This document shows, piece after piece, positions 2,782-40,080 of a DNA stretch of 44,002 nt (the stretch's first letter is position 1; the number at the start of each line of letters is the position of its first letter). The stretch comes from a virus. The position numbers and the translations under genes are program-made. The stretch lies in the UHGV virus genome UHGV-1377823, one strand, 5' to 3'. Below the pieces are notes generated by a model. It ran no database searches. It saw only the letters and a list, made by a program, of their open reading frames with translations, and was not told the DNA's origin.

Positions 2782-2979
2782 ATGCGAGAGCTAGATAAAC
2801 GCCCCGAGCCTGCTGTACAACAGTGGGTGGAGGTGTGGGAATACAACGGTAAAGTGTGGTGCAATACGTACCGTCTATCTGGCGGTGTTGAGGAGATGTA
2901 CGACCCGGTTAAGGACTTATGGCGTGAACCGGATATCAAAGGTGACCGCGTAAAAGGCACCCACTACTACACCGTTTAA
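2782..2979 (+). CDS. hypothetical protein (65 aa)
   Basis: ATG ORF with a GGAG SD; Trp-rich. Confidence 0.45.
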   Translation: MRELDKRPEPAVQQWVEVWEYNGKVWCNTYRLSGGVEEMYDPVKDLWREPDIKGDRVKGTHYYTV

Positions 2980-2986
2980 ATTTAAT

Positions 2987-3002
2987 AGGCCCTGCGGGGC
3001 CT
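2987..3002 (+). other. GC-rich hairpin AGGCCC-tgcg-GGGCCT without U-tract
   Basis: Perfect 6-bp stem with a tetraloop directly after the 2979 stop. No T-run follows, so it may be an RNA processing or stability element rather than an intrinsic terminator. Confidence 0.4.
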
Positions 3003-3011
3003 CTAAGGATT

Positions 3012-3401
3012 ATGATGACCGCTACTATGATTCAAGAAGCTACCCCAACCATCCAGTTCCAGAACCTATCCTATGAGGTAAGCCGCTTCATTGTGGACCT
3101 GTACAATGATACAGAGCCAATGGTTGACGGTATTAAGTCAGACTTAGCGCAGCTAGCTAAGCTGTATGGCGCGGACCTGGCTCTGGTGGAGGAGCAGATG
3201 CAACAGCACAACGATATCCCAGCTAAGGCTGAGAAGCTGCTGGAGGACCCGCTGGTGTACCTGCGCATTGTGGGTAGTCTCTCAGCGCACCTTGGGAATA
3301 TCGCTGCGGTGCTGTATGACCCTGAGCAGGGTCTGGTTGCCGTAGAGGTAATGGGGGAGCTGCTGGGTACGTTGCTGGTCCTACAGGAAGCAGGTTACTA
3401 A
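3012..3401 (+). CDS. hypothetical protein (129 aa)
   Basis: ATG ORF with coding-strand codon bias; no recognisable motif. Confidence 0.5.
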   Translation: MMTATMIQEATPTIQFQNLSYEVSRFIVDLYNDTEPMVDGIKSDLAQLAKLYGADLALVEEQMQQHNDIPAKAEKLLEDPLVYLRIVGSLSAHLGNIAAVLYDPEQGLVAVEVMGELLGTLLVLQEAGY

Positions 3402-3402
3402 T

Positions 3403-4362
3403 ATGCAGATACGGGGCATCGACTTATCGGGGCTGCCTGAGCAACTGGTTGCCCCTGCTGTATCAGACAAGGTGCTGCTGCTGGACGGGGATTTCATGGT
3501 CTACAAAGCAGCAGCCACAGTAAAGCGCCTGGACACAGCAATCCGGCGCTTCTACCAGCTAGTGCTGGAGGAGATGTTCTATGCTAACGTCAAAGAGTGT
3601 CTGGTGTATCTTACTCCTTCTAATTGTGCTAAGTGCGGTAGATACCTCTTACCGACTGTACGGCCTTACCAGGCGCAGCGTACTACGCGCCCGGAGCTAC
3701 CTCTCAAGCAACCGCTGAAACAGCATCTGCTGAGCAATCCTAACGAGTACAGTCAGCACGGTATAGAGGTGCTGGGGAGTTATGAGTATGAAGCTGACGA
3801 CCTTATCGTTATGGATTCGTATAAGTTCGGAGTTCGGTGCATCGTCAGCAGCGGGGACAAGGACCTCAGACTATCCCCCGCGTCACGTCTGGAGATGCCC
3901 ACTGGAACTATACTCCCCCCAGTATCTGACAGCTTCGGCTACATCGAGTGGGACGAATCGCACTCATTCCCAATAGTCGGGCAGGGGACAAAGTTCTTCT
4001 TCGCGCAGTTACTGGCTGGAGATGCAGCAGACAACATCAAAGGCATCCTCACGCTCAATGGGAAGCCCTGTGGGGCTACGAAAGCCTTCGAGGTAATCAA
4101 CCCTATTGTCTCAGCAGAGGAAGCCGCAGAGCGCGTTCTAGGAGCTTACGCAGCCATAGGGCAGGATGTACTGGCAGAAGCAGAAGCACTCTGGCTGAGA
4201 AGGCATGAACAGGATTCAGCGTATGAGTACCTAATGTCTTTGGTAACTACTCCAGAATACAGGAGCTGGTTAACCCAGCTCAGGGATTATCATAAGCAGT
4301 ACCGAACCTATATTCTGGAGCAAAGCAATGAAGAAACAATCAATGAAGCAGATGCGCCTTAA
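3403..4362 (+). CDS. 5'-3' exonuclease (T7 gp6-like)
   Basis: VLLLDGDFMVYKAAAT aligns with T7 gp6 ILVMDGDWLVFQAMSA, and SSGDKDLRLSP with ISCDKDFKTIP. Its position in the DNA-metabolism module fits. Confidence 0.85.
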   Translation: MQIRGIDLSGLPEQLVAPAVSDKVLLLDGDFMVYKAAATVKRLDTAIRRFYQLVLEEMFYANVKECLVYLTPSNCAKCGRYLLPTVRPYQAQRTTRPELPLKQPLKQHLLSNPNEYSQHGIEVLGSYEYEADDLIVMDSYKFGVRCIVSSGDKDLRLSPASRLEMPTGTILPPVSDSFGYIEWDESHSFPIVGQGTKFFFAQLLAGDAADNIKGILTLNGKPCGATKAFEVINPIVSAEEAAERVLGAYAAIGQDVLAEAEALWLRRHEQDSAYEYLMSLVTTPEYRSWLTQLRDYHKQYRTYILEQSNEETINEADAP

Positions 4363-6225: not shown

Positions 6226-6377
6226 GGACGAACAGGAACCTTTAGTACCTAGTGCATGGTGCAGACAGCGTTACGAGGAAGCGCTGGAGCGCGGTGACGC
6301 TGCATCTGCACAGGCTTATTTGAGTATGCACGAGCTTTGGGTAAGACGCGAACAGGAAACTAAGAAAGGTGATTAGC

Positions 6378-6584
6378 ATGACAGGTAAATGCGGAGCAGA
6401 TTGTACTAACCGTTGCAGCATCGGGGCTTGCCCTAAAGCGGAGCCTAAGGATGAGTTTGATGGATTCATCCTGGACTTCGATGAAGAAGCTGTAGCAAAG
6501 CGTAATGCTGAGCGTGAGCAGGCTCAAACAGAGAGCGCCTACAAGCTCAGCGATGACGGTACGTGCGACGGTTGTACTATTTAG
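6378..6584 (+). CDS. hypothetical Cys-rich small protein
   Basis: ATG 6378 with an AAAGGTG SD. N-terminal CGADCTNRCSIGACP and C-terminal CDGCT cysteine clusters; acidic middle. Confidence 0.45.
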   Translation: MTGKCGADCTNRCSIGACPKAEPKDEFDGFILDFDEEAVAKRNAEREQAQTESAYKLSDDGTCDGCTI

Positions 6585-6637
6585 TAGCACTTAGGATTAA
6601 CCTCAGAAACGTCACGATTAACGTAGAGGGCAGCGAA

Positions 6638-9082
6638 TTGAAATTAGAAACCTTAGAAGAACGCACAGAACGTCAGCTCCAGCTTGAGCAGCAGTACCGT
6701 ACACGCAGCTTAGAGCGCAGCAAGAGCCTGGTGCAGAAAGCTCTGGACTCTGGTAGCCTCAGCACCCTGCCACCAGTGCAGCGCATGATTGCTGCCGCGT
6801 ACGACACTGTATGCGCAGGCATCAACAGCACTAAGCAGGAGAAGACTGCTGGTGTAGGCGCTAAGTACCGCGCGTTCCTGCGCTTAATTCCTACGGATGT
6901 ACTGGCTGTGCTGGCGCTGACAAAGTGCTTCGATTCGCTATTCTCTAACGTAGGCACTAACAGTGCCAGCTCGGCACAGGCTGTACTGTCCGGCTTAGGC
7001 CGTCAGGTTCAGGCTGAGCTACTGGCTGTGCAGCTTCAGGCTGTAGCCCCAGCGTACATGAACCGGGTGCATGAGTACCTGAAGGAGCGCAACACCACCA
7101 GCCCATCGCACATCCTCAAGACCCTGCGTGCTTCTGCTGAGAACGTGCATTACCAGCACGAGCCTTGGTCGAACTCGCAGTGCATCTCCGTGGGTAAGCT
7201 CTTGATGCAGGCAGTGTGGGATACAGGGCTGTTCGTATGGAGCAAGCGCGACCGCACGCAGTTGCAGTACCTAACCCCAGCTCCGGCGCTGGAGCAGGTC
7301 CTGTCTGAGCTGGTAGAGCACGCTGATACAGTGCAGCTGAAGCCACCGATGCTTATCCCGCCGCAGCCGCACGATACTATGTTCTCTGGCGGATACCTTA
7401 CGGACATTGATAGACGCGGTACTTACAGCAACTCCCAGATTCAGCGCAGTATGAAGCGCGAAGTAGCTGAGGCGTTCAAGCAAGCACCGGAGCTTCGGAG
7501 CGCTCTGAACCGTGCTCAGGAGGTTCCTTACCGCATTAACAAGACCATGCTGAGGCTGGTGCAGCAGGCCCGCGCCCTTGGCGTAAGCACAGGTATGCCC
7601 AGCAGCAACCCAGCACCTAAACCAGAGTGGCGCTTGGATGGTGTACCGAAGGAAGAGTACACCGAGCGCGAGCTTGAGGAGTTCCAGGAGTGGAAAATGC
7701 ATATGCGCCAGTGGTACGCGGATGAGCGTACTCGCGTAGGGCAGCTGCGTGCTCTGGTTACAACCGTAAGTATGTGCGAGGAGTTCAAAGATGAAACAGA
7801 GCTGTACTTCCCGACTTGTGTGGATTGGCGATACCGCCTGTACTTCAAGTCCAGCCTGCACCCCCAAGGTTCTGATTTGCAGAAAGCTCTGCTTGAATTC
7901 GGTCGCGGCAAGCCGCTTGGGGAGCGTGGGCTGTTCTGGCTTAAGGTGCATGTCGCCACTTGCTTTGGTTATGACAAAGCCTTATTCGAAGACCGTGCAG
8001 CTTGGGCTGATGCGAACTATGACGCAATTAGACGCCTGGTATCTGACCCATTTAATTCGGACGCTTTTAAACAGGCGGATAGCCCGTGGTGCTTCCTGGC
8101 AGCAGCAATCGACCTTGTTAATGCACTTAGCTCTGTGGAGCCGACAGAGTATGTATCGCACGTACCGGTCGCTATGGACGCTACAAACTCAGGCTCTCAA
8201 CATTACAGCGCAATGCTCCGGGACCCAATCGGCGGGCGATTAACGAACCTGTTCTGGGAAGGTAACGCAGAGAAAGCGGATATGTACATGGACGTGAAGG
8301 AGCGTACGGACTCTAAGGTAATCATGGACCTCACTGACCCAGAGCACGTAGTGCAGGCTACGTACTGGAGAGAGAACCAGATTACTCGGAGTATGACCAA
8401 GCGCCCCTGCATGACCTACGTGTACTCCGCTACTGTACGTAGCTGCTCTGAGTACATCCTTCTGGGTGCTAAGGACGAGGGGTATGAACCCACTGAGGAG
8501 TACAGCCTGTTTAAGCTCGCGGGGTACTTAGCTCCGCGTATGCGTGCTGCTGTAGAAGAGGCTAACCCTGCGGCTGCTGAGGCTATGCGCTTTGCTCAGC
8601 AGATTACGGGACGTGTACCGACTAAGCGGCACTTGCAGTGGAAGACTCCGCTGGGGGGTCTGGTAATTAACCGATACACGGAGTCAGATGAATGCCGGGT
8701 TAAAGTTCAGAGTATGAACCTGACGTACCTGCTCAGTTACAACCGTAACTATGAGCAGAACAATCGCCGTAAGGCTAAGTCTGGTATAGCTCCGAACTTC
8801 GTGCATTCACTGGATAGTACGCACCTGATGATGGTACTGAACGCCTTCGACGGTGATATCCTACCTATCCACGACTCTCTGGCTACGCATGCCTGTGATG
8901 TCGATGCAATGCACAAAGTAATCCGGGAGCAGTTCCTGAAGCTGTACACCGAGCACGACCCACTGCAAACGCTGGCTGACGCAGCGGTGGAGTGTGGTGC
9001 TGACCTGGAAGGTTTAGATATGCCTGAGAAAGGTACTCTGGACTTGACGCAAGTACTTGAATCACCTTTCTTTTTCTGCTAG
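6638..9082 (+). CDS. single-subunit DNA-dependent RNA polymerase (T7 RNAP family)
   Basis: Alignable to T7 RNAP along its length, for example C-terminal PEKGTLDLTQVLESPFFFC against T7 PAKGNLNLRDILESDFAFA, and motif DSLATHACD. The likely start is TTG 6638 with a GAGGG SD 7 nt upstream. The track's 6563 start overlaps the upstream gene. Confidence 0.93.
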   Translation: MKLETLEERTERQLQLEQQYRTRSLERSKSLVQKALDSGSLSTLPPVQRMIAAAYDTVCAGINSTKQEKTAGVGAKYRAFLRLIPTDVLAVLALTKCFDSLFSNVGTNSASSAQAVLSGLGRQVQAELLAVQLQAVAPAYMNRVHEYLKERNTTSPSHILKTLRASAENVHYQHEPWSNSQCISVGKLLMQAVWDTGLFVWSKRDRTQLQYLTPAPALEQVLSELVEHADTVQLKPPMLIPPQPHDTMFSGGYLTDIDRRGTYSNSQIQRSMKREVAEAFKQAPELRSALNRAQEVPYRINKTMLRLVQQARALGVSTGMPSSNPAPKPEWRLDGVPKEEYTERELEEFQEWKMHMRQWYADERTRVGQLRALVTTVSMCEEFKDETELYFPTCVDWRYRLYFKSSLHPQGSDLQKALLEFGRGKPLGERGLFWLKVHVATCFGYDKALFEDRAAWADANYDAIRRLVSDPFNSDAFKQADSPWCFLAAAIDLVNALSSVEPTEYVSHVPVAMDATNSGSQHYSAMLRDPIGGRLTNLFWEGNAEKADMYMDVKERTDSKVIMDLTDPEHVVQATYWRENQITRSMTKRPCMTYVYSATVRSCSEYILLGAKDEGYEPTEEYSLFKLAGYLAPRMRAAVEEANPAAAEAMRFAQQITGRVPTKRHLQWKTPLGGLVINRYTESDECRVKVQSMNLTYLLSYNRNYEQNNRRKAKSGIAPNFVHSLDSTHLMMVLNAFDGDILPIHDSLATHACDVDAMHKVIREQFLKLYTEHDPLQTLADAAVECGADLEGLDMPEKGTLDLTQVLESPFFFC

Positions 9083-31773: not shown

Positions 31774-31864
31774 CCTCACCCTCACCCTCACCGCCCCTCG
31801 TTTCCCCCATAGGGGGTGCCTCAGCCAGAACTATGGCCTGGGTGGGGTGGGGGCCTGGGCCTGT
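31774..31864 (+). repeat. (CCTCAC)x3 - CCCCCATAGGGGG palindrome - G-tract run (GGTGGGGTGGGGGCCTGGGCCTG)
   Basis: Three tandem CCTCAC hexamers at 31774-31791. A perfect 5+3+5 palindrome at 31804-31816. A run of five G-tracts at 31836-31864. The C-rich to G-rich strand switch gives G-quadruplex potential on both strands. Confidence 0.6.
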
Positions 31865-32198
31865 TCAGGGATAGCCTGGGGCCTCTACGAGGCTCTGGGA
31901 GCTTCTCTAAGCGCTTCTACCGGATAGCCTATAGGATTGCATAGGGATAGCCCTGTGATAGCCTTAGCGTGGCTCTGGTTGGCTCTGAGTGATAGCTCTG
32001 AGTAGCTCTGTGTGGTAGCGGAGGTGGGCGCAGGCTTACCTCTTTTCGTCCTCTATGTGTGCCTAGAGATAGCTTAGGGATAGCTGTAGAATCCTCACGT
32101 ACAGGCCGGAGATAGCTATTGGATAGCTCCAGTGTTAGCCGGTAATGGGTATAGCTAGAAGCTAGAGGTTGCATGATAAGGTATGCTGACTGTATGCA

Positions 32199-32227: not shown

Positions 32228-32396
32228 TGGTCATAGCTACTGTATATACTGAGTGCATACTGAGTATATAGCTATATAGAGTTGGTCACAGCTAATGGTA
32301 GTTGATGGGGTGTAACCATAGGTCACACCTCTGTAAGTACAGGGAATATAAGGAGTTGTTTGATTGAGTATAAATCAGTTAATAGAGGGTTTAAGT

Positions 32397-33095
32397 ATGA
32401 GTGTTCACAGCTACAGTACAGGTTTCGGTACACAGTCTGTTACGCTGAATGTACAGAGCCTGGTGGATACACTGGATAAATCCGGTTCGAGGCAGCAGCT
32501 GGTACAAACAGCGCTTAAGGCTGCCAGGGCACTGAGTAATGAACTGTACGGTGAAAGGAATATACTGAAGTGCATGCAGCTTGTGCTGGCTGCTATAGAT
32601 ACAGAGCGGTATCGTTCCGGTACAGAGGTTATCGATGCTGTACTGGATGCTGATACCGCGAAGTGGTTCAAAGCGTACCGGGTTACTCCGGCTCTGCAAG
32701 CACTGTTACCTGCTGGAGTATCAGCAGGGCGTTGTAAGGCTGCGGTTAACGCAGTGTTTAAGCTACAGGGCGGTACAGTAGCTGGTAGTAAGGCTGGTAA
32801 CGTTGTAGCTGCTGCGGATGGCTCTTACAGCGTTGATACAGTAGACCTCTGCGTAGAGTTATATGACCGAGGGTTAAGTGCCGAGGATATTCGGTTCATG
32901 CTACAGCATTATGGCTACAGTCTCACCGAGTGGGAGGTACTGGAGATACTTAATCGTGAGTGCGGCTACCTGGAGAAGTTTATCTATATAGGTAACGGAG
33001 AGGTAGTGCACGCTCAGTGCAGTAGCCTGGAAGGTCTGGAGCAGTGGCAGGACGTGGTGGTAGCTGCTGAGCAGCGTAAATGGCGGGGGATGTAA
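32397..33095 (+). CDS. hypothetical protein (232 aa)
   Basis: ATG with an AGAGGG SD 7 nt upstream. The track's 32364 start uses an alternative codon. No recognisable domain. Confidence 0.6.
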   Translation: MSVHSYSTGFGTQSVTLNVQSLVDTLDKSGSRQQLVQTALKAARALSNELYGERNILKCMQLVLAAIDTERYRSGTEVIDAVLDADTAKWFKAYRVTPALQALLPAGVSAGRCKAAVNAVFKLQGGTVAGSKAGNVVAAADGSYSVDTVDLCVELYDRGLSAEDIRFMLQHYGYSLTEWEVLEILNRECGYLEKFIYIGNGEVVHAQCSSLEGLEQWQDVVVAAEQRKWRGM

Positions 33096-33277
33096 TGCGA
33101 ACTTATGAGGTAGTAGACTTTGCGGTTGGTGCAGTAGATTATGAGTGGGGCTTGAATCTTTGTGGTAGAGAGTTTGATGAACTGACTGCTGCTGTAGAGC
33201 GTAAAGTCTCAGCGGGGCACACGCTCTGCGAGGATTTGATTCTGGATACATTGATGAAGCTTAGAGAGAGGGTTTAA
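33095..33277 (+). CDS. hypothetical small acidic protein (60 aa)
   Basis: ATG overlaps the upstream TAA (TAATG), so the two genes are translationally coupled. Confidence 0.45.
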   Translation: MRTYEVVDFAVGAVDYEWGLNLCGREFDELTAAVERKVSAGHTLCEDLILDTLMKLRERV

Positions 33278-33290
33278 GCGGTGGGAGAGA

Positions 33291-33323
33291 GGGAAGCGCT
33301 ATACAGCTAGTGCTTCCCTTTTT
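33291..33323 (+). terminator. rho-independent terminator
   Basis: GGGAAGC(GCT)-loop-(AGT)GCTTCCC stem followed by TTTTTG. Lies directly after the 33277 stop and before the early promoters. Confidence 0.65.
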
Positions 33324-33353
33324 GCTTAATAGAGAATTATTTTAAATTAAGTG

Positions 33354-33382
33354 TTGACATTCTGAATCAGGACTAGTAGAGT
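33354..33382 (+). promoter_or_regulatory. strong sigma70 early promoter (TTGACA-17-TAGAGT) with AT-rich UP element
   Basis: Consensus -35 TTGACA at 33354-33359, a 17-nt spacer, and -10 TAGAGT at 33377-33382. Upstream is AATAGAGAATTATTTTAAATTAAGTG (UP-element-like). Analogous to the T7 A1 promoter. Confidence 0.6.
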
Positions 33383-33578
33383 TAGACACATCGAGAGGCA
33401 AGGAGCCGCCCGGTAACGGGGAGTAGCGCCAGGGCATACGAAACCTGGATAATCGATAAGCAGGGTAAGAGATTAAGGTATTACTCCTCCGCGAAACCCT
33501 CGAAAGAGACCAGCTAGCGGGAACCTGGAAGAGGTTCGATAACTGGAAGTGACCGACATCACTGCGAAGAAACAGAGC

Positions 33579-33607
33579 TTGACAAGTACAGCAAAACGCA
33601 GTAACTT
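33579..33607 (+). promoter_or_regulatory. second sigma70 early promoter (TTGACA-17-TAACTT)
   Basis: Consensus -35 TTGACA at 33579-33584, a 17-nt spacer, and -10 TAACTT at 33602-33607. Confidence 0.5.
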
Positions 33608-33851
33608 AGATAGCAAGCAAGACAAGTTCACGAGTACGAAGTAAGTCGGGAGCCGTTACAAGGATTGTAGCAAGCGCGACTATAAATATCTGCGGGCTGG
33701 CGTGCTGAGAGACTGCGCCTTTATAGAAGAGTCTCGAACGTTGTAGAGCGTCCACGGTTATGCAGTGGGAATCTACACTAAGACACGCTGTACAAGGCGT
33801 GACCTTAGTTAAGCACCCTCTCTGTGAGGATGCAGAATTAAGGGGTATATC

Positions 33852-34022
33852 ATGAAGAAGATTAAAATTGGGTCATACGTACTGGTTAAGCACGAGTATA
33901 AATACACATCCCCTGTGAGCTTACATCGTACTCACACAGTAATCGACGTTCGCGGCGCAGAGTTACTTTTAAAGGGGTGCACTGATTATCTCCCGTTGAG
34001 CATGTTCGAACTCCACCGATAG
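33852..34022 (+). CDS. first early ORF, hypothetical (56 aa)
   Basis: ATG with an AAGGGG SD. Translation is MKKIKIGSYVLVKHEYKYTSPVSLHRTHTVIDVRGAELLLKGCTDYLPLSMFELHR. Below the ORF-track size cutoff. Confidence 0.4.
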   Translation: MKKIKIGSYVLVKHEYKYTSPVSLHRTHTVIDVRGAELLLKGCTDYLPLSMFELHR

Positions 34023-34031
34023 GGACGTGTT

Positions 34032-34268
34032 ATGGGCTACTTAAAACTCTGTAAGAAGCGCGAGCAGTCAATCAAAGCACTGGTAGCTGCTGCGCAGACT
34101 CCGGAAGGCTCTGAGGAGCGCAAGCGCCTTAAGAAGCTTCAGACCTTTGAGGCTACTGACCGGGCAAGACCGCAGGGCTTCAGTACGAACGTACGCAGTA
34201 TCGGTAATAAGACCGATAGCAAGATTAACAGCTACTACGCGGCTAAGAGCCGTACACCTAAATTCTAA
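34032..34268 (+). CDS. hypothetical basic early protein (78 aa)
   Basis: ATG ORF; Lys/Arg-rich. Confidence 0.5.
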   Translation: MGYLKLCKKREQSIKALVAAAQTPEGSEERKRLKKLQTFEATDRARPQGFSTNVRSIGNKTDSKINSYYAAKSRTPKF

Positions 34269-34280
34269 GAGGAAACAATC

Positions 34281-34511
34281 ATGGCTAAATATAACGGACA
34301 CAAAAACTGGAATCACTGGAATGTATCTCTGTGGATTAACAACGATGAGGGGCTGTATCGCTTAGCTGTGGAGCAGGTTGAGAAGTGCCGGACCCGTGAG
34401 CGCGCAGCGGAGAATATTGTGCATGAGCTTGCTAGTGCAGGCATTACTCACACCTCAGACGGTGCCCCTTACTCTAAATCAGCAGTTCGCGCTGCTCTGG
34501 TAGGTATGTGA
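34281..34511 (+). CDS. hypothetical early protein (76 aa)
   Basis: ATG with an AGAGGAAA SD. Confidence 0.5.
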   Translation: MAKYNGHKNWNHWNVSLWINNDEGLYRLAVEQVEKCRTRERAAENIVHELASAGITHTSDGAPYSKSAVRAALVGM

Positions 34512-34609
34512 TGGAGTGGTGCACGGAGTTCTACGTATTCTTCTTCCTGGTGTTAATGCCAGCATGGTTCTGGTTAGTATCTCCAACCTCTAAAGGTGGC
34601 AAGAAATGA
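34511..34609 (+). CDS. small hydrophobic membrane peptide (32 aa)
   Basis: MEWCTEFYVFFFLVLMPAWFWLVSPTSKGGKK. Both its start and its stop overlap neighbouring genes in ATGA fashion (TGATG and ATGA). Confidence 0.35.
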   Translation: MEWCTEFYVFFFLVLMPAWFWLVSPTSKGGKK

Positions 34610-34845
34610 TTCAGACAATTACTATCGCGGTTAAGTCCGCTGTGCTGCTGCTTAGCAGCAACGTAGCAGAGCCTATCCTGTATTGCACCGTAGAAGTCAC
34701 AGGGCAGCCCGGCTATGAGCTTTATGAGGCCCCAGAAGGTGGTTGCAAGGGCTTAGGCAAGCGCCTGCTACAGAGCTTCCAGGGCGCTTATCCTGATAAG
34801 CCTGTACTGCTTATCGTTGACGGTAAATCCAACCAGGGGATTTAA
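34606..34845 (+). CDS. hypothetical early protein (79 aa)
   Basis: ATG ORF coupled to the upstream peptide. Confidence 0.5.
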   Translation: MIQTITIAVKSAVLLLSSNVAEPILYCTVEVTGQPGYELYEAPEGGCKGLGKRLLQSFQGAYPDKPVLLIVDGKSNQGI

Positions 34846-34846
34846 T

Positions 34847-34993
34847 ATGTTAACCTACTGCGGGGTGCTAATTCTTTTGGCTGGGTTCTATGCTTTTACG
34901 CGTGGCTGCTGGGTTGGCGGTGGCTGGCTGTTTGCTTGGGTAGGGGTTGCGCTTGTGTATATCCTAACCGCCATGACCATTTTAAATATTTGA
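34847..34993 (+). CDS. small 2-TMD membrane protein (48 aa)
   Basis: MLTYCGVLILLAGFYAFTRGCWVGGGWLFAWVGVALVYILTAMTILNI, starting 2 nt after the upstream stop. Confidence 0.4.
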   Translation: MLTYCGVLILLAGFYAFTRGCWVGGGWLFAWVGVALVYILTAMTILNI

Positions 34994-35001
34994 GGTGCAA
35001 G

Positions 35002-35172
35002 ATGAACAACCAGACAGTTGAGACAGAGTGCAAGCGCGAAGCAGATATGTTCGCGCTGTTCCAGTTCCTGATGAAGCGGCCTGATTTGGCTGCGAACGAG
35101 GACAAGGGCGGCGACGAGGTACGCGCCGCTACTAACGCTAACTTTTACAGAGGGCTTGGTGATGCGATTTAA
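35002..35172 (+). CDS. hypothetical early protein (56 aa)
   Basis: ATG 35002 with a GAGGTG SD. The track ORF starts at 34936 with an alternative codon. Confidence 0.45.
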   Translation: MNNQTVETECKREADMFALFQFLMKRPDLAANEDKGGDEVRAATNANFYRGLGDAI

Positions 35173-35362
35173 GATTAAGGTTAACTATGCAGATACTACT
35201 CAGACGCATTGGTGGTCTGAGCCTGATGGTTCGGTGCCTTGCGAGAGCGATGCTACGGTGTACACCCCTGCGCAGGTAATAGACAAAACCAAGTCTAGCT
35301 GGTTCAACGAGGACCGGGACGCCGGGCGCGATTGCTGGTTATCCCTGAAGCTGGTGCCATAA
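35156..35362 (+). CDS. hypothetical early protein
   Basis: GTG 35156 or ATG 35162 (MRFKIKVNYADTTQTHWW...); Trp-rich. Confidence 0.45.
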   Translation: MVMRFKIKVNYADTTQTHWWSEPDGSVPCESDATVYTPAQVIDKTKSSWFNEDRDAGRDCWLSLKLVP

Positions 35363-35469
35363 TGTTCTGGCTAACGTTCTCCCTGGTCATGGCAGCTATA
35401 GTGCTACTGCCTTATATCTGCGACGGCATAGCGCGGTTGATTCTGTGCTTGCTGGAGCTGTTCCGATAA
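35362..35469 (+). CDS. small hydrophobic membrane peptide (35 aa)
   Basis: MFWLTFSLVMAAIVLLPYICDGIARLILCLLELFR; ATG overlaps the upstream TAA. Confidence 0.3.
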   Translation: MFWLTFSLVMAAIVLLPYICDGIARLILCLLELFR

Positions 35470-35499
35470 CTAAGAACATACAACATGAGGTCGAAGAGA

Positions 35500-35658
35500 A
35501 TGCGTATTCAAGTACACCTTAAAGAATCAGAACTGGCAGAAATGGAGATGACAAAAGAAGAGCTTCGCCAATCTATTATTGCTGATTTGGATAACAGTGA
35601 TGTGGATGGCGAATATGTTGGCTTTACCGTGACTGTGTATGTTACGGAGGGCATTTAA
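35500..35658 (+). CDS. small acidic protein (52 aa), locally AT-rich
   Basis: MRIQVHLKESELAEMEMTKEELRQSIIADLDNSDVDGEYVGFTVTVYVTEGI. An alternative start is ATG 35485. Confidence 0.4.
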   Translation: MRIQVHLKESELAEMEMTKEELRQSIIADLDNSDVDGEYVGFTVTVYVTEGI

Positions 35659-35775
35659 ATGACTATCCAGAGCATCGCATTCCAGTACATGCAGTACCTA
35701 CTCGCTAACGGCTTCAGCGCTGAGTCAGCCTGGGGCCGGGCAATGAAACTTATTGAAGAAGGGGGCAAGAAATGA
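35659..35775 (+). CDS. small hypothetical protein (38 aa)
   Basis: ATG abuts the upstream TAA, and its stop overlaps the next ATG (ATGA). Confidence 0.3.
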   Translation: MTIQSIAFQYMQYLLANGFSAESAWGRAMKLIEEGGKK

Positions 35776-35999
35776 TTAAAGGTCAGCAGATTCGTTACTT
35801 AGGCCGCAAAGGCCGCGCGGTTTTAGACTTAACGGTTGGGCGTGAATACACAGTTACAGCCGGGGCAGGTGATATAGATAGCGCTTGTGGTGGTCTGGTT
35901 GGGGATTACGGCTGTAACATCATAAACGACGTAGGGGATGTGCTGTATGTAACCTTCAGCGGCACATCCCTCTGGGGTGATTGGGAGATTGTATCATGA
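35772..35999 (+). CDS. hypothetical early protein (75 aa)
   Basis: ATG ORF; Gly-rich. Confidence 0.5.
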   Translation: MIKGQQIRYLGRKGRAVLDLTVGREYTVTAGAGDIDSACGGLVGDYGCNIINDVGDVLYVTFSGTSLWGDWEIVS

Positions 36000-36175
36000 C
36001 AGCACAGAATCCAGAGGTTATCCTGATTAAGCAGGAGCAGCCAACTATCGAGGGCTTAGCGCGGGAGCGCGCAGCTAAGCAAGGACTTAAGCATTACTAC
36101 CAGGTACGGGCACGCCAGCTAGGGCTGAGCCTGCGCACGTACTGCGAGCGCTTTAATGTTAAGGGGGTTGTATGA
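35996..36175 (+). CDS. hypothetical early protein (59 aa)
   Basis: ATG 35996 overlaps the upstream TGA (ATGA). Confidence 0.45.
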   Translation: MTAQNPEVILIKQEQPTIEGLARERAAKQGLKHYYQVRARQLGLSLRTYCERFNVKGVV

Positions 36176-36504
36176 GCAACATCGACAAACGCGCATTACG
36201 TGAAGCGGCAGAGAAGGCTATCTCAGAGGAAGGAGAGACTTGGTGGAGTGAAGAGCAACTGGCTAGCGACTATGGTCTTGCGTTGCATAAGGCAGACGCC
36301 AAGTTCATCGCCGCAGCCAATCCCGCCACTGTGCTGGCGCTGCTGGATGAGCTGGAATCCGCAGAGAAGCGGATTGCTGAGCAGCGGGAAACCTTGCTTG
36401 CAGCACGCAGTCACGTAATGCACTGTGCGCACCTTGGTGATGCCCATGCAAGCGGTGTGCTTCAGGCTATCGACCGCGCCGCAGTCGCTAAAGGGGTTAT
36501 CTAA
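36172..36504 (+). CDS. Ead/Ea22-like protein
   Basis: AANPATVLALLDELESAEKRIAEQRE matches the conserved core of the Ead/Ea22-like phage early-protein family. The assignment is from memory, not from a search. Confidence 0.6.
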   Translation: MSNIDKRALREAAEKAISEEGETWWSEEQLASDYGLALHKADAKFIAAANPATVLALLDELESAEKRIAEQRETLLAARSHVMHCAHLGDAHASGVLQAIDRAAVAKGVI

Positions 36505-36830
36505 TGCTCACCCCCGCTGAGACCGCCGCGCTGTACTGGGATATGCTCGAGCAACAGCGCAGTATGGGCCTGAAGTCCCTGCGGGATATCCCGGTGCAGC
36601 TACGGAAGCTAGCGCCCTTGCAGTGGAGAACAGGCTTCGAGTACCGCGAGGGGCTGCGCTTACTGCAAGGCTGGTACGCATATAGCCCTGAGATCGCACA
36701 GGAAGCCCTAGGAGAGCTTAAGTTCGACGTGGTAGGGCAACTACAGCGCTTAGGGTACAAAGGCGCTCAGAGAGCGTTCTACGCAGCCGTACAAGACTAT
36801 TACGATTGGAGAGTGAGTTATGCAGCTTAA
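36504..36830 (+). CDS. hypothetical early protein (108 aa)
   Basis: ATG overlaps the upstream stop; Trp/Tyr-rich. Confidence 0.5.
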   Translation: MLTPAETAALYWDMLEQQRSMGLKSLRDIPVQLRKLAPLQWRTGFEYREGLRLLQGWYAYSPEIAQEALGELKFDVVGQLQRLGYKGAQRAFYAAVQDYYDWRVSYAA

Positions 36831-37008
36831 AGAGACAGACATTTGTTGGCCAGTTAAATTAGAGGTGGATACGTACGGGGGCACAACCTTGGATTTGGTT
36901 GAGGTTGACGACGCGTTCAGAGTCGCCCTGGACCGTGAACAAGCACAGCAGCTACTGCCAATCCTGGAGCATTTCATTAAGACGGGGGAATTACCTGATG
37001 CAAGTTAA
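36820..37008 (+). CDS. small acidic protein (62 aa)
   Basis: ATG ORF with a high Asp/Glu content, a candidate DNA mimic. Confidence 0.45.
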   Translation: MQLKETDICWPVKLEVDTYGGTTLDLVEVDDAFRVALDREQAQQLLPILEHFIKTGELPDAS

Positions 37009-37267
37009 CGCTGAGACGTTGCAAAAGCGTATTAAGAGCCTGCAAGTGCGGGGTAATGCTGAGTATGCCCTGCCTCTGACTCTTAACGAGGAGTATCAGC
37101 TAGAGGCTTACAAGATGCTGCTGGGGTACTTGGTAAAGGAACCCTCTGTCTTTATGGGCGTGTTCCATGACGGGCGCGGTGTTGCTTACTATCACACTGC
37201 AAAAGCAGCGGTTAAGGACGGGGTATATGAGGTTGTACCTTTGTATGAGGACGCCTTAATTGACTAA
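36998..37267 (+). CDS. hypothetical early protein (89 aa)
   Basis: ATG 36998 with a GGGGGAA SD 7 nt upstream. The track start at 36899 sits in an overlap region. Confidence 0.5.
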   Translation: MQVNAETLQKRIKSLQVRGNAEYALPLTLNEEYQLEAYKMLLGYLVKEPSVFMGVFHDGRGVAYYHTAKAAVKDGVYEVVPLYEDALID

Positions 37268-37499
37268 GCAAACACAGCACAGACTGGACATCCAGGTAAT
37301 GCCGCCCCTAGGGCCGCTGGGCAAGAGTATCTACAAGCTCCAGCAAGCCTGGGGGCCTGAGGATAACCCAAATGTAGACACAGTGTGGCTCACAAGCTAC
37401 GATGTAGAAGCACTTTGGGAATTATATCAACGTGAACAAGCTCTGGCTGCTGCTAGCGCTGCCAATGCTGGCTGTTTCAACACTAAATATGAGGGGTAG
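37260..37499 (+). CDS. hypothetical early protein
   Basis: TTG 37260 or ATG 37299. Confidence 0.4.
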   Translation: MTKQTQHRLDIQVMPPLGPLGKSIYKLQQAWGPEDNPNVDTVWLTSYDVEALWELYQREQALAAASAANAGCFNTKYEG

Positions 37500-37502
37500 G
37501 GT

Positions 37503-37979
37503 ATGACTAAGTTTAAAGTTGGTGATATGGTTGTTGGTAATCAAGGTGACGAGCTGAATGATGTTGAGGAGGGACAACTGTACACTGTACTGGAAGTGGA
37601 TGAATTACTTGATGGGTGCTTCTTAAAAGTAGACAACGATAAAAGGTGCTGGGTATGCTCTTGGCGCTTTGACCTGTATAAGGCAGTCCCTTACCAAGAA
37701 GCGCAAGATGACCCGCTCCCGCCAGCGCCGGAGAGTGTACGATACTACACAGTGCCAAGTAAGACACAATACTTAGACATTCTCACTAATGAGTTTGGTG
37801 AGGTTGAGATACGTTCAATACTCCCAGATTTCGCCAGTTACAACTACCTTACACCCGACGCAGCCTTGCAGCTAGCGCATGACCTGAACAGAATGGCTAA
37901 CGAAATCAAGCGTAAGGAGACGCAGCAGGAGCGTAAGACTACGCTAAGCCCCGCCATTGTACACCTTTACGGAGAGTAA
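37503..37979 (+). CDS. hypothetical protein (158 aa)
   Basis: ATG with a GAGGGG SD. The N-terminal KVGDMVVG..G.LYTV is SH3/KOW-like. Confidence 0.55.
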   Translation: MTKFKVGDMVVGNQGDELNDVEEGQLYTVLEVDELLDGCFLKVDNDKRCWVCSWRFDLYKAVPYQEAQDDPLPPAPESVRYYTVPSKTQYLDILTNEFGEVEIRSILPDFASYNYLTPDAALQLAHDLNRMANEIKRKETQQERKTTLSPAIVHLYGE

Positions 37980-37981
37980 CT

Positions 37982-38821
37982 ATGGATGCCCCCTGGCTAC
38001 AAGCATGTAAGCGCCTGGCTGTGGGGCAAACTGCCAGGTTCAGATGCTGCGGTAGAACTCCTGCTGCCGTGCTTTTTAATAAACCCGATACGTGGCAGAT
38101 GTATTGTCACAGGTGTCACACGTCGCTCAGTGAGCGCAAACAATACGTATCCCTGGTGCAGCCGGAAGTGCTGCCTAGGGTGCTGCCTGCGCCTGCACAG
38201 CTAATACAGATTCACCAGACGAGCGCTGAATTGCAGGCACAGCTTTACGGATTCTTAGTATCTAAGGGCATCATGCCAGAGATGGCTGGTGCAGTTTACT
38301 ATTCAGAGCAACTAAAGAGGTTAGTATGGGATTTACAGAATGGGACTTACCTGGCGAGAGCGCTGCATCAGTATCAACAACCAAAGTGGGTAATGCTGGG
38401 GCAGCCCGCTCAGTATGCTATGGTACAGACCCCCTGGCTGAGCACGCCCAAGACTACGCAGAGCTTGAGCGAATCTTCTGCGCAGTCTACGCAGACAGCG
38501 TCGAGCGCCGTAGTACTGACCGAGGACTGGTTGAGCGCCCTAAAAGTCTCCTGGGTAGCTGGGAAATACTCTTCGGAACCAGTTACGGCGGTAGCCTTAC
38601 TTGGGACCAGGTTGTCGCTGCCTCTAAAAGCGAAGCTGATTCAGCTTGGTAAGTCAGTGCTGCTGATGCTGGACGGAGACAGCGCCGGGTACACCGGGCG
38701 GGACACTATACAGCGCACCTTGAAACCGTTCTTGCAGACACGCAGTTACACAATCGACGGGTTAGACCCGAAGGACATGACCTGCCAACAAATCCTGGAG
38801 GGTTTAAATTGGATTACTTAA
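37982..38821 (+). CDS. DNA primase (zinc-ribbon + TOPRIM)
   Basis: N-terminal zinc-binding CC....C..C.H cluster and a TOPRIM DxD motif, MLDGDSAGYTGRD. Encoded separately from the helicase, as in phiKMV. Confidence 0.85.
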   Translation: MDAPWLQACKRLAVGQTARFRCCGRTPAAVLFNKPDTWQMYCHRCHTSLSERKQYVSLVQPEVLPRVLPAPAQLIQIHQTSAELQAQLYGFLVSKGIMPEMAGAVYYSEQLKRLVWDLQNGTYLARALHQYQQPKWVMLGQPAQYAMVQTPWLSTPKTTQSLSESSAQSTQTASSAVVLTEDWLSALKVSWVAGKYSSEPVTAVALLGTRLSLPLKAKLIQLGKSVLLMLDGDSAGYTGRDTIQRTLKPFLQTRSYTIDGLDPKDMTCQQILEGLNWIT

Positions 38822-40080
38822 TCTGCCGCGCTATGTGTGAGCGCAAGGTCTATGACAGGCTGCACGACCAGATACCAAAATCCATGCTTGCGCCCGATAC
38901 TGTAGCTCTTCTGGGTTGGATTCAACTCTACTATGCAACCTACACTGACAGCAACGCTGTGCAGTGGGACGCTATGCAGACGCTCCTTGGGATGCGCGGG
39001 CAGCATCTACAGAAAGAGCAAATGGATATCCTGAAGCACATGCTCAAGCAGGTGCAGCAGGTTCCTGAAGAAGCAGTAGCCGGGGTAGTGCGTACTCTGA
39101 ATGAGATGGCCTACTCCGGCGAGATGGCGTCGCTGGTGCAGCAGTACCAGGACGGTGCAGAGATAGACTTTATCGCAGAGGCCAAGCAGTTAGAGCGCAA
39201 GTACAGCAGCGTAGCGACAGCGCAGGACTCTTTACTTAACTGGGAAGATGGGGGTGTAGATGATATACTTGCAGCGACTGACGAAAGTGGTGGCCTTAAG
39301 CTTAATGTGTTTCCCGAGCTTGCTGATAATGTTCGTGGCTTACGTGGGGGTGATTGTGTCGCTGTTGCTGCCCCTGTCGATGCAGGAAAGACTAGCTTGC
39401 TGGCTGCAACGGTTGTGGGACTTACCGAACAACTTGTTAATCAAGATGCTTACGCAGATAGACCGGTTCTATGGCTCGTGAACGAATCCCTGGCAAAGCG
39501 TACTGTACCGCGCATCTACCAGGCAGCTACCGGGCTGACCCTGCATGAGATTGTAGAGCAGCACAAGCAAGGTAAGTTCGCAGAGAAGTACCTGGCTAAG
39601 GTGGGCAGCTGGGACCGCATCAGAGTTAAGGATGCGCACAGCATCACTATGCCTCAGATAGCTACGCTAATGGAGGAGATGCGCCCGGCTGTGCTGGTTG
39701 TGGATATGGTTTCAAATATACGGGGCGGCACTCTGGAGTCTGAGCATCAGAACCTGGAAGCCAAGTGGCAGGAGCTGCGCGTGCTGGGCTGTGAGTACGA
39801 TTGCATCATCATTGGCACCATGCAGCTATCAGTCGAGGGTTATGATATGCTGTACCCGCCGCTGACAGCGATGAAGCAGAGCAAGATCGGTGTACAGGGG
39901 GCGCTGGACCTGTGCATTATGATGGGCAGGTTAGACCCTAGCACAAGGCCGGACATGCTGAACATCCGGGGGATATCCACCCCGAAATGTAAGTTGGCTA
40001 AATCCGGCAGTCCTAGTTATTTGCAATTTCAAGTGGAGTTTGACGGTGGTAGATGTCAATTTAATGCAGGCCTTGTATAA
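38809..40080 (+). CDS. replicative DNA helicase (DnaB/gp4 helicase-domain family)
   Basis: Walker A motif AAPVDAGKTSL and a RecA-like core. TTG 38809 has a GGAGGG SD 7 nt upstream; ATG 38833 is an alternative start. Confidence 0.88.
   Translation: MDYLICRAMCERKVYDRLHDQIPKSMLAPDTVALLGWIQLYYATYTDSNAVQWDAMQTLLGMRGQHLQKEQMDILKHMLKQVQQVPEEAVAGVVRTLNEMAYSGEMASLVQQYQDGAEIDFIAEAKQLERKYSSVATAQDSLLNWEDGGVDDILAATDESGGLKLNVFPELADNVRGLRGGDCVAVAAPVDAGKTSLLAATVVGLTEQLVNQDAYADRPVLWLVNESLAKRTVPRIYQAATGLTLHEIVEQHKQGKFAEKYLAKVGSWDRIRVKDAHSITMPQIATLMEEMRPAVLVVDMVSNIRGGTLESEHQNLEAKWQELRVLGCEYDCIIIGTMQLSVEGYDMLYPPLTAMKQSKIGVQGALDLCIMMGRLDPSTRPDMLNIRGISTPKCKLAKSGSPSYLQFQVEFDGGRCQFNAGLV

Follow-up and report, generated by a model that had tools for sequence, protein, structure and literature searches.

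The window analysed here is the viral genome UHGV-1377823 (44,002 nt, one strand), and this work concerns a chain of small genes that begins at position 33852 and the possible roles of five of its products. The segment 33852–35775 contained 11 open reading frames (ORFs) of 32–79 aa, which opened a series of 19 back-to-back small ORFs on the plus strand (33852–37979) running up to the primase gene at 37982. Five of these ORFs had been picked out by the original prediction, three as membrane peptides and two as strongly acidic proteins, and each proved to be an open frame of the plus strand exactly where it had been placed: ORF4 (34511–34609, 32 aa), ORF6 (34847–34993, 48 aa), ORF9 (35362–35469, 35 aa), ORF10 (35500–35658, 52 aa) and ORF16 (36820–37008, 62 aa). 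Stop and start codons overlapped at 11 of the 19 junctions, as ATGA, as TAATG or TGATG, or over 8–11 nt. The overlap was TGATG at ORF3/ORF4, ATGA at ORF4/ORF5 and ORF11/ORF12, TAATG at ORF8/ORF9 and 11 nt at ORF7/ORF8. The remaining junctions had gaps of 0–12 nt, except for one 30-nt gap between ORF9 and ORF10.

With all ORFs on one strand, overlaps or near-zero spacing and a Shine-Dalgarno (SD)-like site at every start, the chain has the make-up of an operon and is probably translationally coupled. A codon model was trained on 17 long genes of the window, and each ORF was scored in six frames. The called frame was the best of six in 18 of the 19 ORFs, with scores of 0.14–0.62 bits/codon, ORF9 being the exception; among 223 minus-strand ORFs used as background, 1.8% exceeded 0.15 bits/codon. 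SD-like pairing at the 19 starts ranged from −4.9 to −11.8 kcal/mol (background mean −2.8), and the weakest pairing of the chain belonged to ORF9. At ORF10, the start at 35500 paired with −6.3 kcal/mol, compared with −1.3 for an alternative start at 35485. The overlaps, the SD sites and the codon scores were all in line with the original view that these are small, tightly coupled, real genes.

In nucleotide comparison, the early region shared 89–92% identity across about half its length with five GenBank Koutsourovirus phages (phiKDA1, SDFMU_Pec, SDFMU_EhYP, Entb_48, and Salmonella phage KKP 3828). On this similarity, the window is a phiKDA1-like Koutsourovirus genome (Autographiviridae, Slopekvirinae; T7 superfamily). 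All long ORFs of the window were carried by the plus strand. Because the left terminal repeat of phiKDA1 aligned to window 31780–32051, the window appears to be a rotated complete genome with its physical left end near 31.8 kb. The small-gene chain begins about 2 kb from this end, behind a terminator and two sigma-70-type promoter matches. The gene for a single-subunit RNA polymerase (6563–9082; Pfam RNA_pol, E 1e-90) was found behind the primase gene (37982–38821, plus strand), a DnaB-like helicase gene (38809–40080; DnaB_C match) and other replication genes, which is the phiKMV-type layout; in T7, by contrast, the polymerase gene lies inside the early region. In phiKMV-like phages, the genes ahead of the phage's own RNA polymerase gene are read by the host polymerase. 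Since this gene is far downstream of the chain, the genes from the left end to the primase would likewise be read by the host polymerase. The Koutsourovirus match, the layout and the promoter matches all agreed with the earlier placing of the segment in the early region of a T7-superfamily phage. A 109-member cluster of ORF2 homologues showed that Logan and ENA contain over 100 contigs of 43–45 kb that are Koutsourovirus-like. The filing of ORF1 in this cluster was a clustering artefact, and the ORF1 and ORF2 sequences are unrelated.

An intrinsic-terminator-like hairpin (GGGAAGCGCTA...TAGTGCTTCCC, followed by TTTTT; 33286–33325, plus strand) closed the upstream unit 32364–33277. It folded at −26.1 kcal/mol (z −5.7; 0 of 200 shuffles were as good) and was kept in all five aligned relatives. 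The putative promoter P1 (33354–33382, plus strand) comprised TTGACA, a 17-nt spacer and TAGAGT, with an A/T-rich stretch upstream. It matched 10 of the 12 sigma-70 consensus positions and was the top site between 31 and 38.5 kb; its −35 element was invariant in the relatives, and the surrounding block was 91% identical to phiKDA1. The putative promoter P2 (33579–33607, plus strand), read from the sequence, comprised TTGACA, a 17-nt spacer and TAACTT, and its block was conserved in five of six aligned genomes. The relatives kept the hairpin, the −35 boxes and their flanks, and differed in much of the leader between them. The 570-nt leader (33286–33850) contained a window-specific insertion of ~95 nt at about 33470–33565, and its remainder was conserved in patches. 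Rfam gave no match anywhere in the whole window, leader included.

Fifteen relatives were compared with the window, namely the five GenBank records, two IMG/VR contigs, and eight Logan or ENA contigs. The contigs were reached via homologues of ORF6 and ORF16, and gene-order maps were made for 7 and then 16 genomes, together with per-gene searches; a metagenome scan with ORF15 found only a 1.1-kb contig. A backbone of about ten genes (ORF2, ORF5, ORF7, ORF9, ORF11, ORF13, ORF15, ORF17, ORF18, and ORF19) occurred in all or nearly all genomes. At least seven slots lay exactly at gene junctions, and they were filled by unrelated small genes in different genomes. ORF1 and ORF10 were specific to this genome, and ORF12 and ORF14 were nearly so. 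The ratio of non-synonymous to synonymous divergence (pN/pS) was 0.11–0.24 for the backbone neighbours, and the values given below for ORF4, ORF9, ORF10, and ORF11 point to purifying selection in their own frames.

Two copies of a 19-nt repeat (AAGGKGGCAAGAAATGATT) were found, one at 34593–34611 (plus strand) on the ORF4/ORF5 boundary and the other at 35759–35777 on the ORF11/ORF12 boundary. The copies were identical at 18 of 19 bases, and none was expected in 100 shuffles. The repeat may act as micro-homology for cassette exchange. Both micro-ORFs upstream of it end in GGKK, and both genes downstream start with MI. In KKP 3828, the gene inserted after ORF4 begins MIQTIT, as ORF5 does.

The three hydrophobic products reached Kyte-Doolittle maxima over 17 residues of 2.18 (ORF4), 2.14 (ORF6), and 2.29 (ORF9), which bore out the forecast of three membrane peptides. 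Each combined a bilayer-length hydrophobic segment with flanking charges, which lay in the KGGKK tail of ORF4, the Arg-rich tail of ORF9 and the TRG loop of ORF6. ORF4 is a predicted single-pass protein with a transmembrane segment at residues ~7–24 and an acidic N-terminus. It was present in 7 of 16 genomes; the six homologues were all open, 32 aa long and always straight after ORF3. One copy with 56% identity was alike in length, N-terminal acidity, hydrophobic core and KK tail. The pooled pN/pS of ORF4 was 0.25 in its own frame and 0.38–2.1 in the other five frames, all of which contained stops. A match of ORF4 to the transmembrane hairpin of a P5A-ATPase (16 bits, below the cut-off) reflected composition only and was discarded. 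A holin or spanin identity for the hydrophobic ORFs was set aside on position alone (early operon, upstream of the replication genes).

ORF6 is an accessory cassette whose product is predicted to be a two-helix membrane hairpin. It belonged to phrog_6693 (E 1.3e-6; residues 1–48 of 48 against profile 1–47 of 47) and shared 62% identity with Orf2 of Jilinvirus ECO1230-10 (tblastn E 1e-11) and 46–48% with a peptide that several T4-like phages encode directly ahead of gp47. A distant copy at the same gp47-upstream position in phage CIP9 (36% identity, E 0.4) was annotated as 'putative membrane protein'. The loop motif of the family was Y-x-F-T-R-G/A-C-W, and Y15, F17, R19, C21, W22, and G24 were invariant among six aligned sequences. 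ORF6 agreed with the family profile end to end, and with the peptides of the T4-like phages and ECO1230-10 in the loop motif and in length. However, their context differed, since ORF6 is in a podovirus early operon and the others are in a replication and recombination cluster of myoviruses. ORF6 was found in 3 of 16 genomes, and it occupied the same slot in the two of 15 relatives that carried it.

ORF9 is also a predicted single-pass protein, with a transmembrane segment at residues ~2–19 and an amphipathic Arg-rich tail. All 15 relatives had it at 77–94% identity, and it was intact in 14 of them; the phiKDA1 copy (3371–3478) contained L15P and an in-frame stop. This stop is either a true loss in a laboratory isolate or a sequencing error. 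The conserved DNA block began exactly at the ATG, irrespective of the upstream gene, and ended in a conserved 25-nt spacer with a ribosome-binding site for whichever gene comes next. The pN/pS of ORF9 was 0.34 in the called frame, the lowest of the six, and 1.18 in the sole other frame that was open in all genomes. A full HMMER scan of 1.84e9 representative proteins with ORF9 returned its own cluster only. A fourth family of hydrophobic micro-ORFs (48–52 aa, MLKSLFF...) was seen directly upstream of the primase in SDFMU_Pec (6322–6480) and SDFMU_EhYP (6459–6605) and was absent from the window.

Judged by frame conservation and homology, ORF4, ORF6, and ORF9 are genuine protein-coding genes, and by their distribution ORF9 is a genus-wide core gene, ORF4 a frequent accessory gene and ORF6 a rare cassette of a cross-phage family. 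Two other readings of these frames were weighed. One, that these tiny ORFs opened by chance in spacers between real genes, or are translated merely to hand ribosomes on to the next gene with the peptide sequence being of no account, is very improbable. Gene callers and most annotators miss ORF4 and ORF9, the codon score of ORF9 is not the best of its six frames, and in the 9 of 16 genomes without ORF4 either ORF3 or ORF2 couples directly to ORF5. However, pN/pS was lowest in the called frames, and synonymous changes were in frame-specific excess, which is unexpected for spacers. The 56%-identical ORF4 copy retained its length, transmembrane segment and charged tail, 15 of the 16 genomes kept ORF9 open, its conservation setting in and breaking off sharply at the ATG and the stop, and ORF6 had homologues with the conserved motif in unrelated phage families. 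ORF4 is moreover not needed for coupling, because many genomes lack it. The second reading is that the ORF9 block (35362–35495) owes its conservation chiefly to a nucleic-acid element, for instance a promoter within the chain, a site of RNA processing or an anchor for recombination in cassette exchange, and that the open frame is secondary. The synonymous divergence of ORF9 (pS 0.12) was 2–3 times below that of its neighbours, the downstream spacer with its SD site was kept whatever gene followed, the block sits between two cassette slots, and phiKDA1 tolerates a stop in the ORF. We nevertheless regard such an element as improbable: the block contained no promoter match and no Rfam match, its RNA folding was unremarkable (z −1.7), synonymous sites were favoured in the ORF9 frame only, and conservation set in precisely at the start codon.

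Both acidic products had an isoelectric point (pI) of 4.2 and a net charge of −8, so the predicted strong acidity is real. ORF10 is a cassette that was absent from all 15 Koutsourovirus relatives. Together with its ribosome-binding site (35477–35669), it shared 85–88% nucleotide and 96% amino acid identity with a gene in Enterobacter hormaechei contigs, where the homologue lies in arrays of 45–100-aa genes, beside DUF2737/NinH and upstream of a P22-type terminase. The ORF10 family had a pN/pS of 0.12, and 44 of its 69 variable sites fell on the third position of a codon; by these values it is clearly under constraint. ORF14 (36172–36504, plus strand; 110 aa) is Ead/Ea22-like (PF13935, E 5e-17) and represents a cassette common to lambdoid phages. 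Its part 36172–36382 was 90% identical over 211 nt to the temperate lambdoid phage mEp390, and this DNA identity suggested a recent exchange. On these similarities, ORF10 and ORF14 are cassettes exchanged with temperate phages, in the case of ORF10 recently and with Enterobacter prophages. The arrays of P22-like and lambdoid prophages (nin/ea-type; DUF2737, NinH, Ead/Ea22) resemble the chain in their coupled 45–100-aa genes, with ORF10 and ORF14 in common; in contrast to them, the chain belongs to a strictly lytic phage and lies behind putative early host-type promoters.

In three prophage arrays, the ORF10 homologues always adjoined a 41–47-aa protein, MTIH.KDAFEDAQ...AMQALKAAYKG (228–368; 248–370; 1649–1792). 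ORF11 (MTIQSIAFQYMQ...AMKLIEEGGKK) was considered as its counterpart and rejected; the likeness was loose and visual, and BLASTP gave no alignment. The AlphaFold2 (AF2) model of ORF10 was beta-alpha-alpha-beta (strand-helix-helix-strand), with a predicted local distance difference test (pLDDT) score of 78, and Foldseek found no fold match for it in the PDB at E ≤ 0.001. The enzyme 4-oxalocrotonate tautomerase has a beta-alpha-beta unit with a catalytic N-terminal proline. This identity was also considered for ORF10 (Foldseek E ≥ 1.6, template-modelling (TM) score 0.4–0.6) and was rejected because there is no Pro at position 2, ORF10 and its homologues starting with M-R/Y/L-I.

ORF16 was bipartite, with an invariant C-terminal helix QQLLPILEHFIKTGELPDAS after a hypervariable N-terminal beta-sheet part. 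It matched phrog_13627/phrog_3849, with E 2.2e-6 over the full length and E 6e-7 over the C-terminal 30 residues. The invariant C-terminus was common to 27 homologous clusters; in an alignment of 28 clusters, the last 24 residues (EQAQQLLPILEHFIKTGELPDAS) were almost invariant, and the first 38 formed many unrelated-looking alleles. The pN/pS was 0.66 for codons 1–38 and 0.16 for codons 39–62, with synonymous changes in both parts. Judged by the alignment, this pattern of conservation is the most distinctive feature of the chain. The AF2 model (pLDDT 86) showed a small sheet packed by the C-terminal helix. Compared with the PDB it gave nothing significant, the only matches being non-significant ones of PUR-repeat and chemokine-like type; in BFVD it resembled uncharacterised small phage proteins (TM 0.74–0.78) and, weakly, 'T4 y05I-like' proteins. 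The net charge within the family ranged from −13 to +1, and the SDFMU_Pec copy was basic (pI 9.4); the acidity of ORF16 is therefore common, not essential.

Among the other genes of the chain, all on the plus strand, ORF1 (33852–34022; 56 aa, basic; phrog_15633, E 1.8e-12; SD pairing −8.4 kcal/mol) is an accessory cassette absent from all 15 relatives, and ORF2 (34032–34268; 78 aa, pI 10.2; phrog_9286) is a backbone gene found in all of them, with a pN/pS of 0.21. ORF3 (34281–34511; 76 aa) belongs to DUF7249 (PF23907, E 2.6e-16) and was present in 11 of 15 relatives. Its N-terminal half was conserved, and its C-terminal half varied within the genus (pN/pS 0.40). The first ~30 codons (MAKYNGHKNWNHWNVSLWINNDEGLY; window 34267–34372) were 71–88% identical at the nucleotide level in very different phages, including Vequintavirus, PBECO4-like jumbo phages, and phages of Vibrio, Ralstonia, Aeromonas, Klebsiella, and Providencia. 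On these matches, ORF3 carries a domain that is widespread among phages and whose N-terminal part is conserved to an unusual degree. ORF5 (34606–34845; 79 aa; phrog_7036, E 3e-32), which is ATGA-coupled to ORF4, is a backbone gene present in 15 of 15 relatives, with a pN/pS of 0.11. Its product, which was not on the original list of hydrophobic ones, is moderately hydrophobic at the N-terminus (MIQTITIAVKSAVLLLSSNVA), contains two conserved Cys and could be exported or membrane-anchored. The SDFMU_EhYP copy of ORF5 (2965–3204) contained an in-frame stop, which is a true loss in a laboratory isolate or a sequencing error.

ORF7 (35002–35172; 56 aa, acidic; pN/pS 0.16) belongs to the backbone and was full-length in nine of 15 relatives and partial in six, where it was cut to 31 aa. 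ORF8 (35162–35362; 66 aa) is a variable cassette found in four of 15 relatives at 30–89% identity, and PHROG and Pfam searches gave no family match for it. The backbone gene ORF11 (35659–35775; 38 aa; SD pairing −10.0 kcal/mol), whose product is soluble and helical, was present in 15 of 15 relatives with a pN/pS of 0.20. ORF12 (35772–35999; 75 aa, acidic) is a variable cassette with weak PHROG matches only, and it was shared with two of 15 relatives at 46–84% identity. Two further backbone genes were each present in 14 of 15 relatives, namely ORF13 (35996–36175; 59 aa, basic; DUF7267, PF23929, E 3.9e-15; pN/pS 0.19) and ORF15 (36504–36830; 108 aa; phrog_6167; pN/pS 0.14). The backbone was completed by ORF17 (36998–37267; 89 aa), which had a 35%-identical relative within prophage small-gene arrays, ORF18 (37260–37499; 79 aa) and ORF19 (37503–37979; 158 aa), the last gene of the chain, directly before the primase gene.

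Searches for known functions gave little. Pfam and NCBIfam placed no flagged ORF in a family of known function, and the PHROG matches were all to families of function unknown. The PADLOC defence models gave 0 matches at E ≤ 0.01 for 10 small ORFs, and sequence searches of the PDB gave no match for ORF3, ORF4, ORF6, ORF9, ORF10, ORF11, or ORF16. The original prediction had compared the flagged ORFs with T7 gp0.4, gp0.6, gp2, and Ocr, and this comparison did not hold. When the 19 chain products were compared by blastp with 16 small T7 early and middle proteins, the best E value, in a database of just these 16 sequences, was 0.06, so nothing better than this was found for homology to gp0.4 (an FtsZ inhibitor), gp0.6 (MreB), or gp2 (RNA polymerase). 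For Ocr (gp0.3) the best E value in the same 16-sequence database was 0.11, and there was no fold match. The four T7 proteins are, like the chain products, small early or middle proteins of Autographiviridae, and Ocr, gp0.4, and gp2 are acidic, as are ORF10 and ORF16. However, all four are soluble and for that reason are not analogues of the hydrophobic trio. T7 Ocr, an anti-restriction protein that mimics DNA, is a mostly helical, elongated acidic dimer of ~117 aa. The predicted folds of ORF10 and ORF16 were without a significant match in the PDB, although it holds the solved structures of Ocr and gp2, and the models suggest small folded beta/alpha domains and not Ocr-type DNA mimics.

By size, position and hydropathy, the T7 analogues of the hydrophobic peptides are instead gp0.5 (47 aa), gp1.4 (51 aa), and gp1.5 (29 aa). 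They belong to the same phage family, are small early or middle proteins encoded among coupled small genes, and have one strongly hydrophobic segment each (17-residue maxima of 2.1–2.6, compared with 2.1–2.3 here); they differ in that they share no sequence similarity with the trio. For T7 gp1.4 and gp1.5, the annotation goes no further than 'hypothetical protein'. The gp0.5 protein has been described as uncharacterised, small and of class I; it is under selection and carries a putative transmembrane helix (PMC12798971), and a second source also calls it uncharacterised (PMC11863960).

T4 Imm is a small membrane protein that acts in superinfection exclusion. PhiNM1 Gp11 is a small early membrane protein that blocks cell division and peptidoglycan synthesis (PMC11237401). 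Both resemble the hydrophobic trio in being small, membrane-embedded and early, a likeness of kind only; unlike the members of the trio, they come from other hosts and phage families.

Here, we propose that the segment is a host-transcribed early accessory operon of a phiKDA1-like Koutsourovirus, and we consider this structural and genetic account probable. When the left genome end enters the cell, the host RNA polymerase would start at the promoters at 33354 and 33579 and produce one long mRNA that covers the 19 small genes and reads on into the primase and helicase genes. The two smallest genes have the weakest SD sites, and most of their translation probably comes from ribosomes that re-initiate after the gene ahead. 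Unrelated small genes would be swapped through the junction slots, some of them, such as ORF10 and ORF14, coming from temperate phages of the same hosts. ORF4 and ORF9 would span the inner membrane once, with their positive tails in the cytoplasm, and ORF6 would form an inner-membrane hairpin whose conserved loop, FTRGCW, faces the cytoplasm; in each case insertion is inferred. The trio probably acts in the first minutes after infection, by binding host inner-membrane proteins or by blocking the entry of competing phage DNA. ORF16 probably docks on a conserved partner via its invariant C-terminal helix and presents its fast-evolving N-terminal surface. That at least one of the hydrophobic peptides has a membrane-level role in takeover or exclusion has about an even chance of being right.

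Several observations weigh against this account. The two promoters are consensus matches only, and the transmembrane topologies of ORF4, ORF6, and ORF9 were based solely on hydropathy and the positive-inside rule. The pN/pS of ORF6 among its three close copies was 0.80, which shows no purifying selection there. The codon score of ORF9 was neutral or negative (−0.07 bits/codon), and low codon scores are possible in very hydrophobic peptides. The pS of ORF9 was unusually low in comparison with its neighbours (0.23–0.39), so an added constraint at the nucleotide level is possible, and because the phiKDA1 copy carries a stop, ORF9 is dispensable in at least that isolate. A look at the literature turned up neither functional nor expression reports for the early genes of Koutsourovirus and no functional study of DUF7249 or DUF7267, and nothing separates modulation of host proteins, superinfection exclusion and anti-defence as roles.

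Phage proteins for host takeover and anti-defence come mainly from small early genes, and most of these genes are uncharacterised. The original prediction went further and saw in the three hydrophobic and two acidic micro-proteins effectors devoted to anti-host or anti-defence tasks, equivalent in function to T7 gp0.4, gp0.6, gp2, and Ocr; as such they would inhibit FtsZ, MreB, RNA polymerase, restriction or other defence systems. The early, host-transcribed position and the acidity fit this idea; the turnover of ORF6, ORF10, ORF12, and ORF14 and the hypervariable N-terminus of ORF16 would fit an arms race, and ORF10 circulates in prophage accessory arrays. However, neither similarity to the small T7 proteins nor a PDB sequence match or significant fold match was found, and ORF10 and ORF16 are predicted beta/alpha domains of ~55 aa, in contrast to the helical Ocr mimic. 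ORF9 and ORF11 are slow-evolving conserved core genes and not arms-race cassettes, and acidity is not conserved in the ORF16 family. The cassette turnover agrees with an accessory role as well as with an arms race; the naming of the small ORFs as the most likely effectors was a guess from position. We regard dedicated effectors of this kind as rather unlikely. For the five flagged ORFs, anti-defence in particular is a possible role but no likelier, and only position and turnover point to it. A broader proposal extends the early accessory operon: Autographiviridae might routinely deploy early membrane micro-proteins as a class (ORF9, ORF4, and ORF6 here; gp0.5, gp1.4, and gp1.5 in T7), ORF9 might be a new core takeover or exclusion factor that acts on an inner-membrane target, and ORF16 might be a modular adaptor whose hypervariable sheet tracks host proteins such as defence components. 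This is speculative and on present evidence unlikely.

Annotation was checked in the public gene calls for this genome, which occurs in JGI/IMG, Logan, and ENA as contigs of up to 44,129 bp. It had been claimed that most of the ORFs fall below gene-calling cutoffs; only ORF4 and ORF9 were missing, and the calls contained ORF1, ORF6, ORF8, ORF10, ORF11, ORF12, and ORF16. ORF6, ORF10, ORF11, and ORF16 are already in databases as hypothetical proteins. Three GenBank relatives (KKP 3828, Entb_48, and phiKDA1) have an ORF4 homologue, and in none of them is it annotated; the homologues of ORF9 were annotated in one of five GenBank relatives. What is new here is the two families of membrane micro-proteins largely missed by annotation, ORF9 (genus-wide) and ORF4 (in about half of the genomes), together with the map of backbone and slots, the derivation of ORF10 and ORF14 from temperate phages and the two-part conservation of ORF16.

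In T7- and phiKMV-like phages, it is standard for small early genes to be strung together and coupled, and many of their products are hydrophobic or acidic. The flagged ORFs are ordinary early accessory genes of this sort, including two largely unannotated micro-protein families. The current understanding of phage biology is unchanged by these findings, which would gain more interest only if experiments showed a new target. For one little-studied genus, they provide a ranked, evidence-based list of candidates (ORF9, ORF4, ORF6, ORF10, and ORF16), and the backbone-plus-cassette map tells experimenters which genes are likely to be core and which strain-specific.

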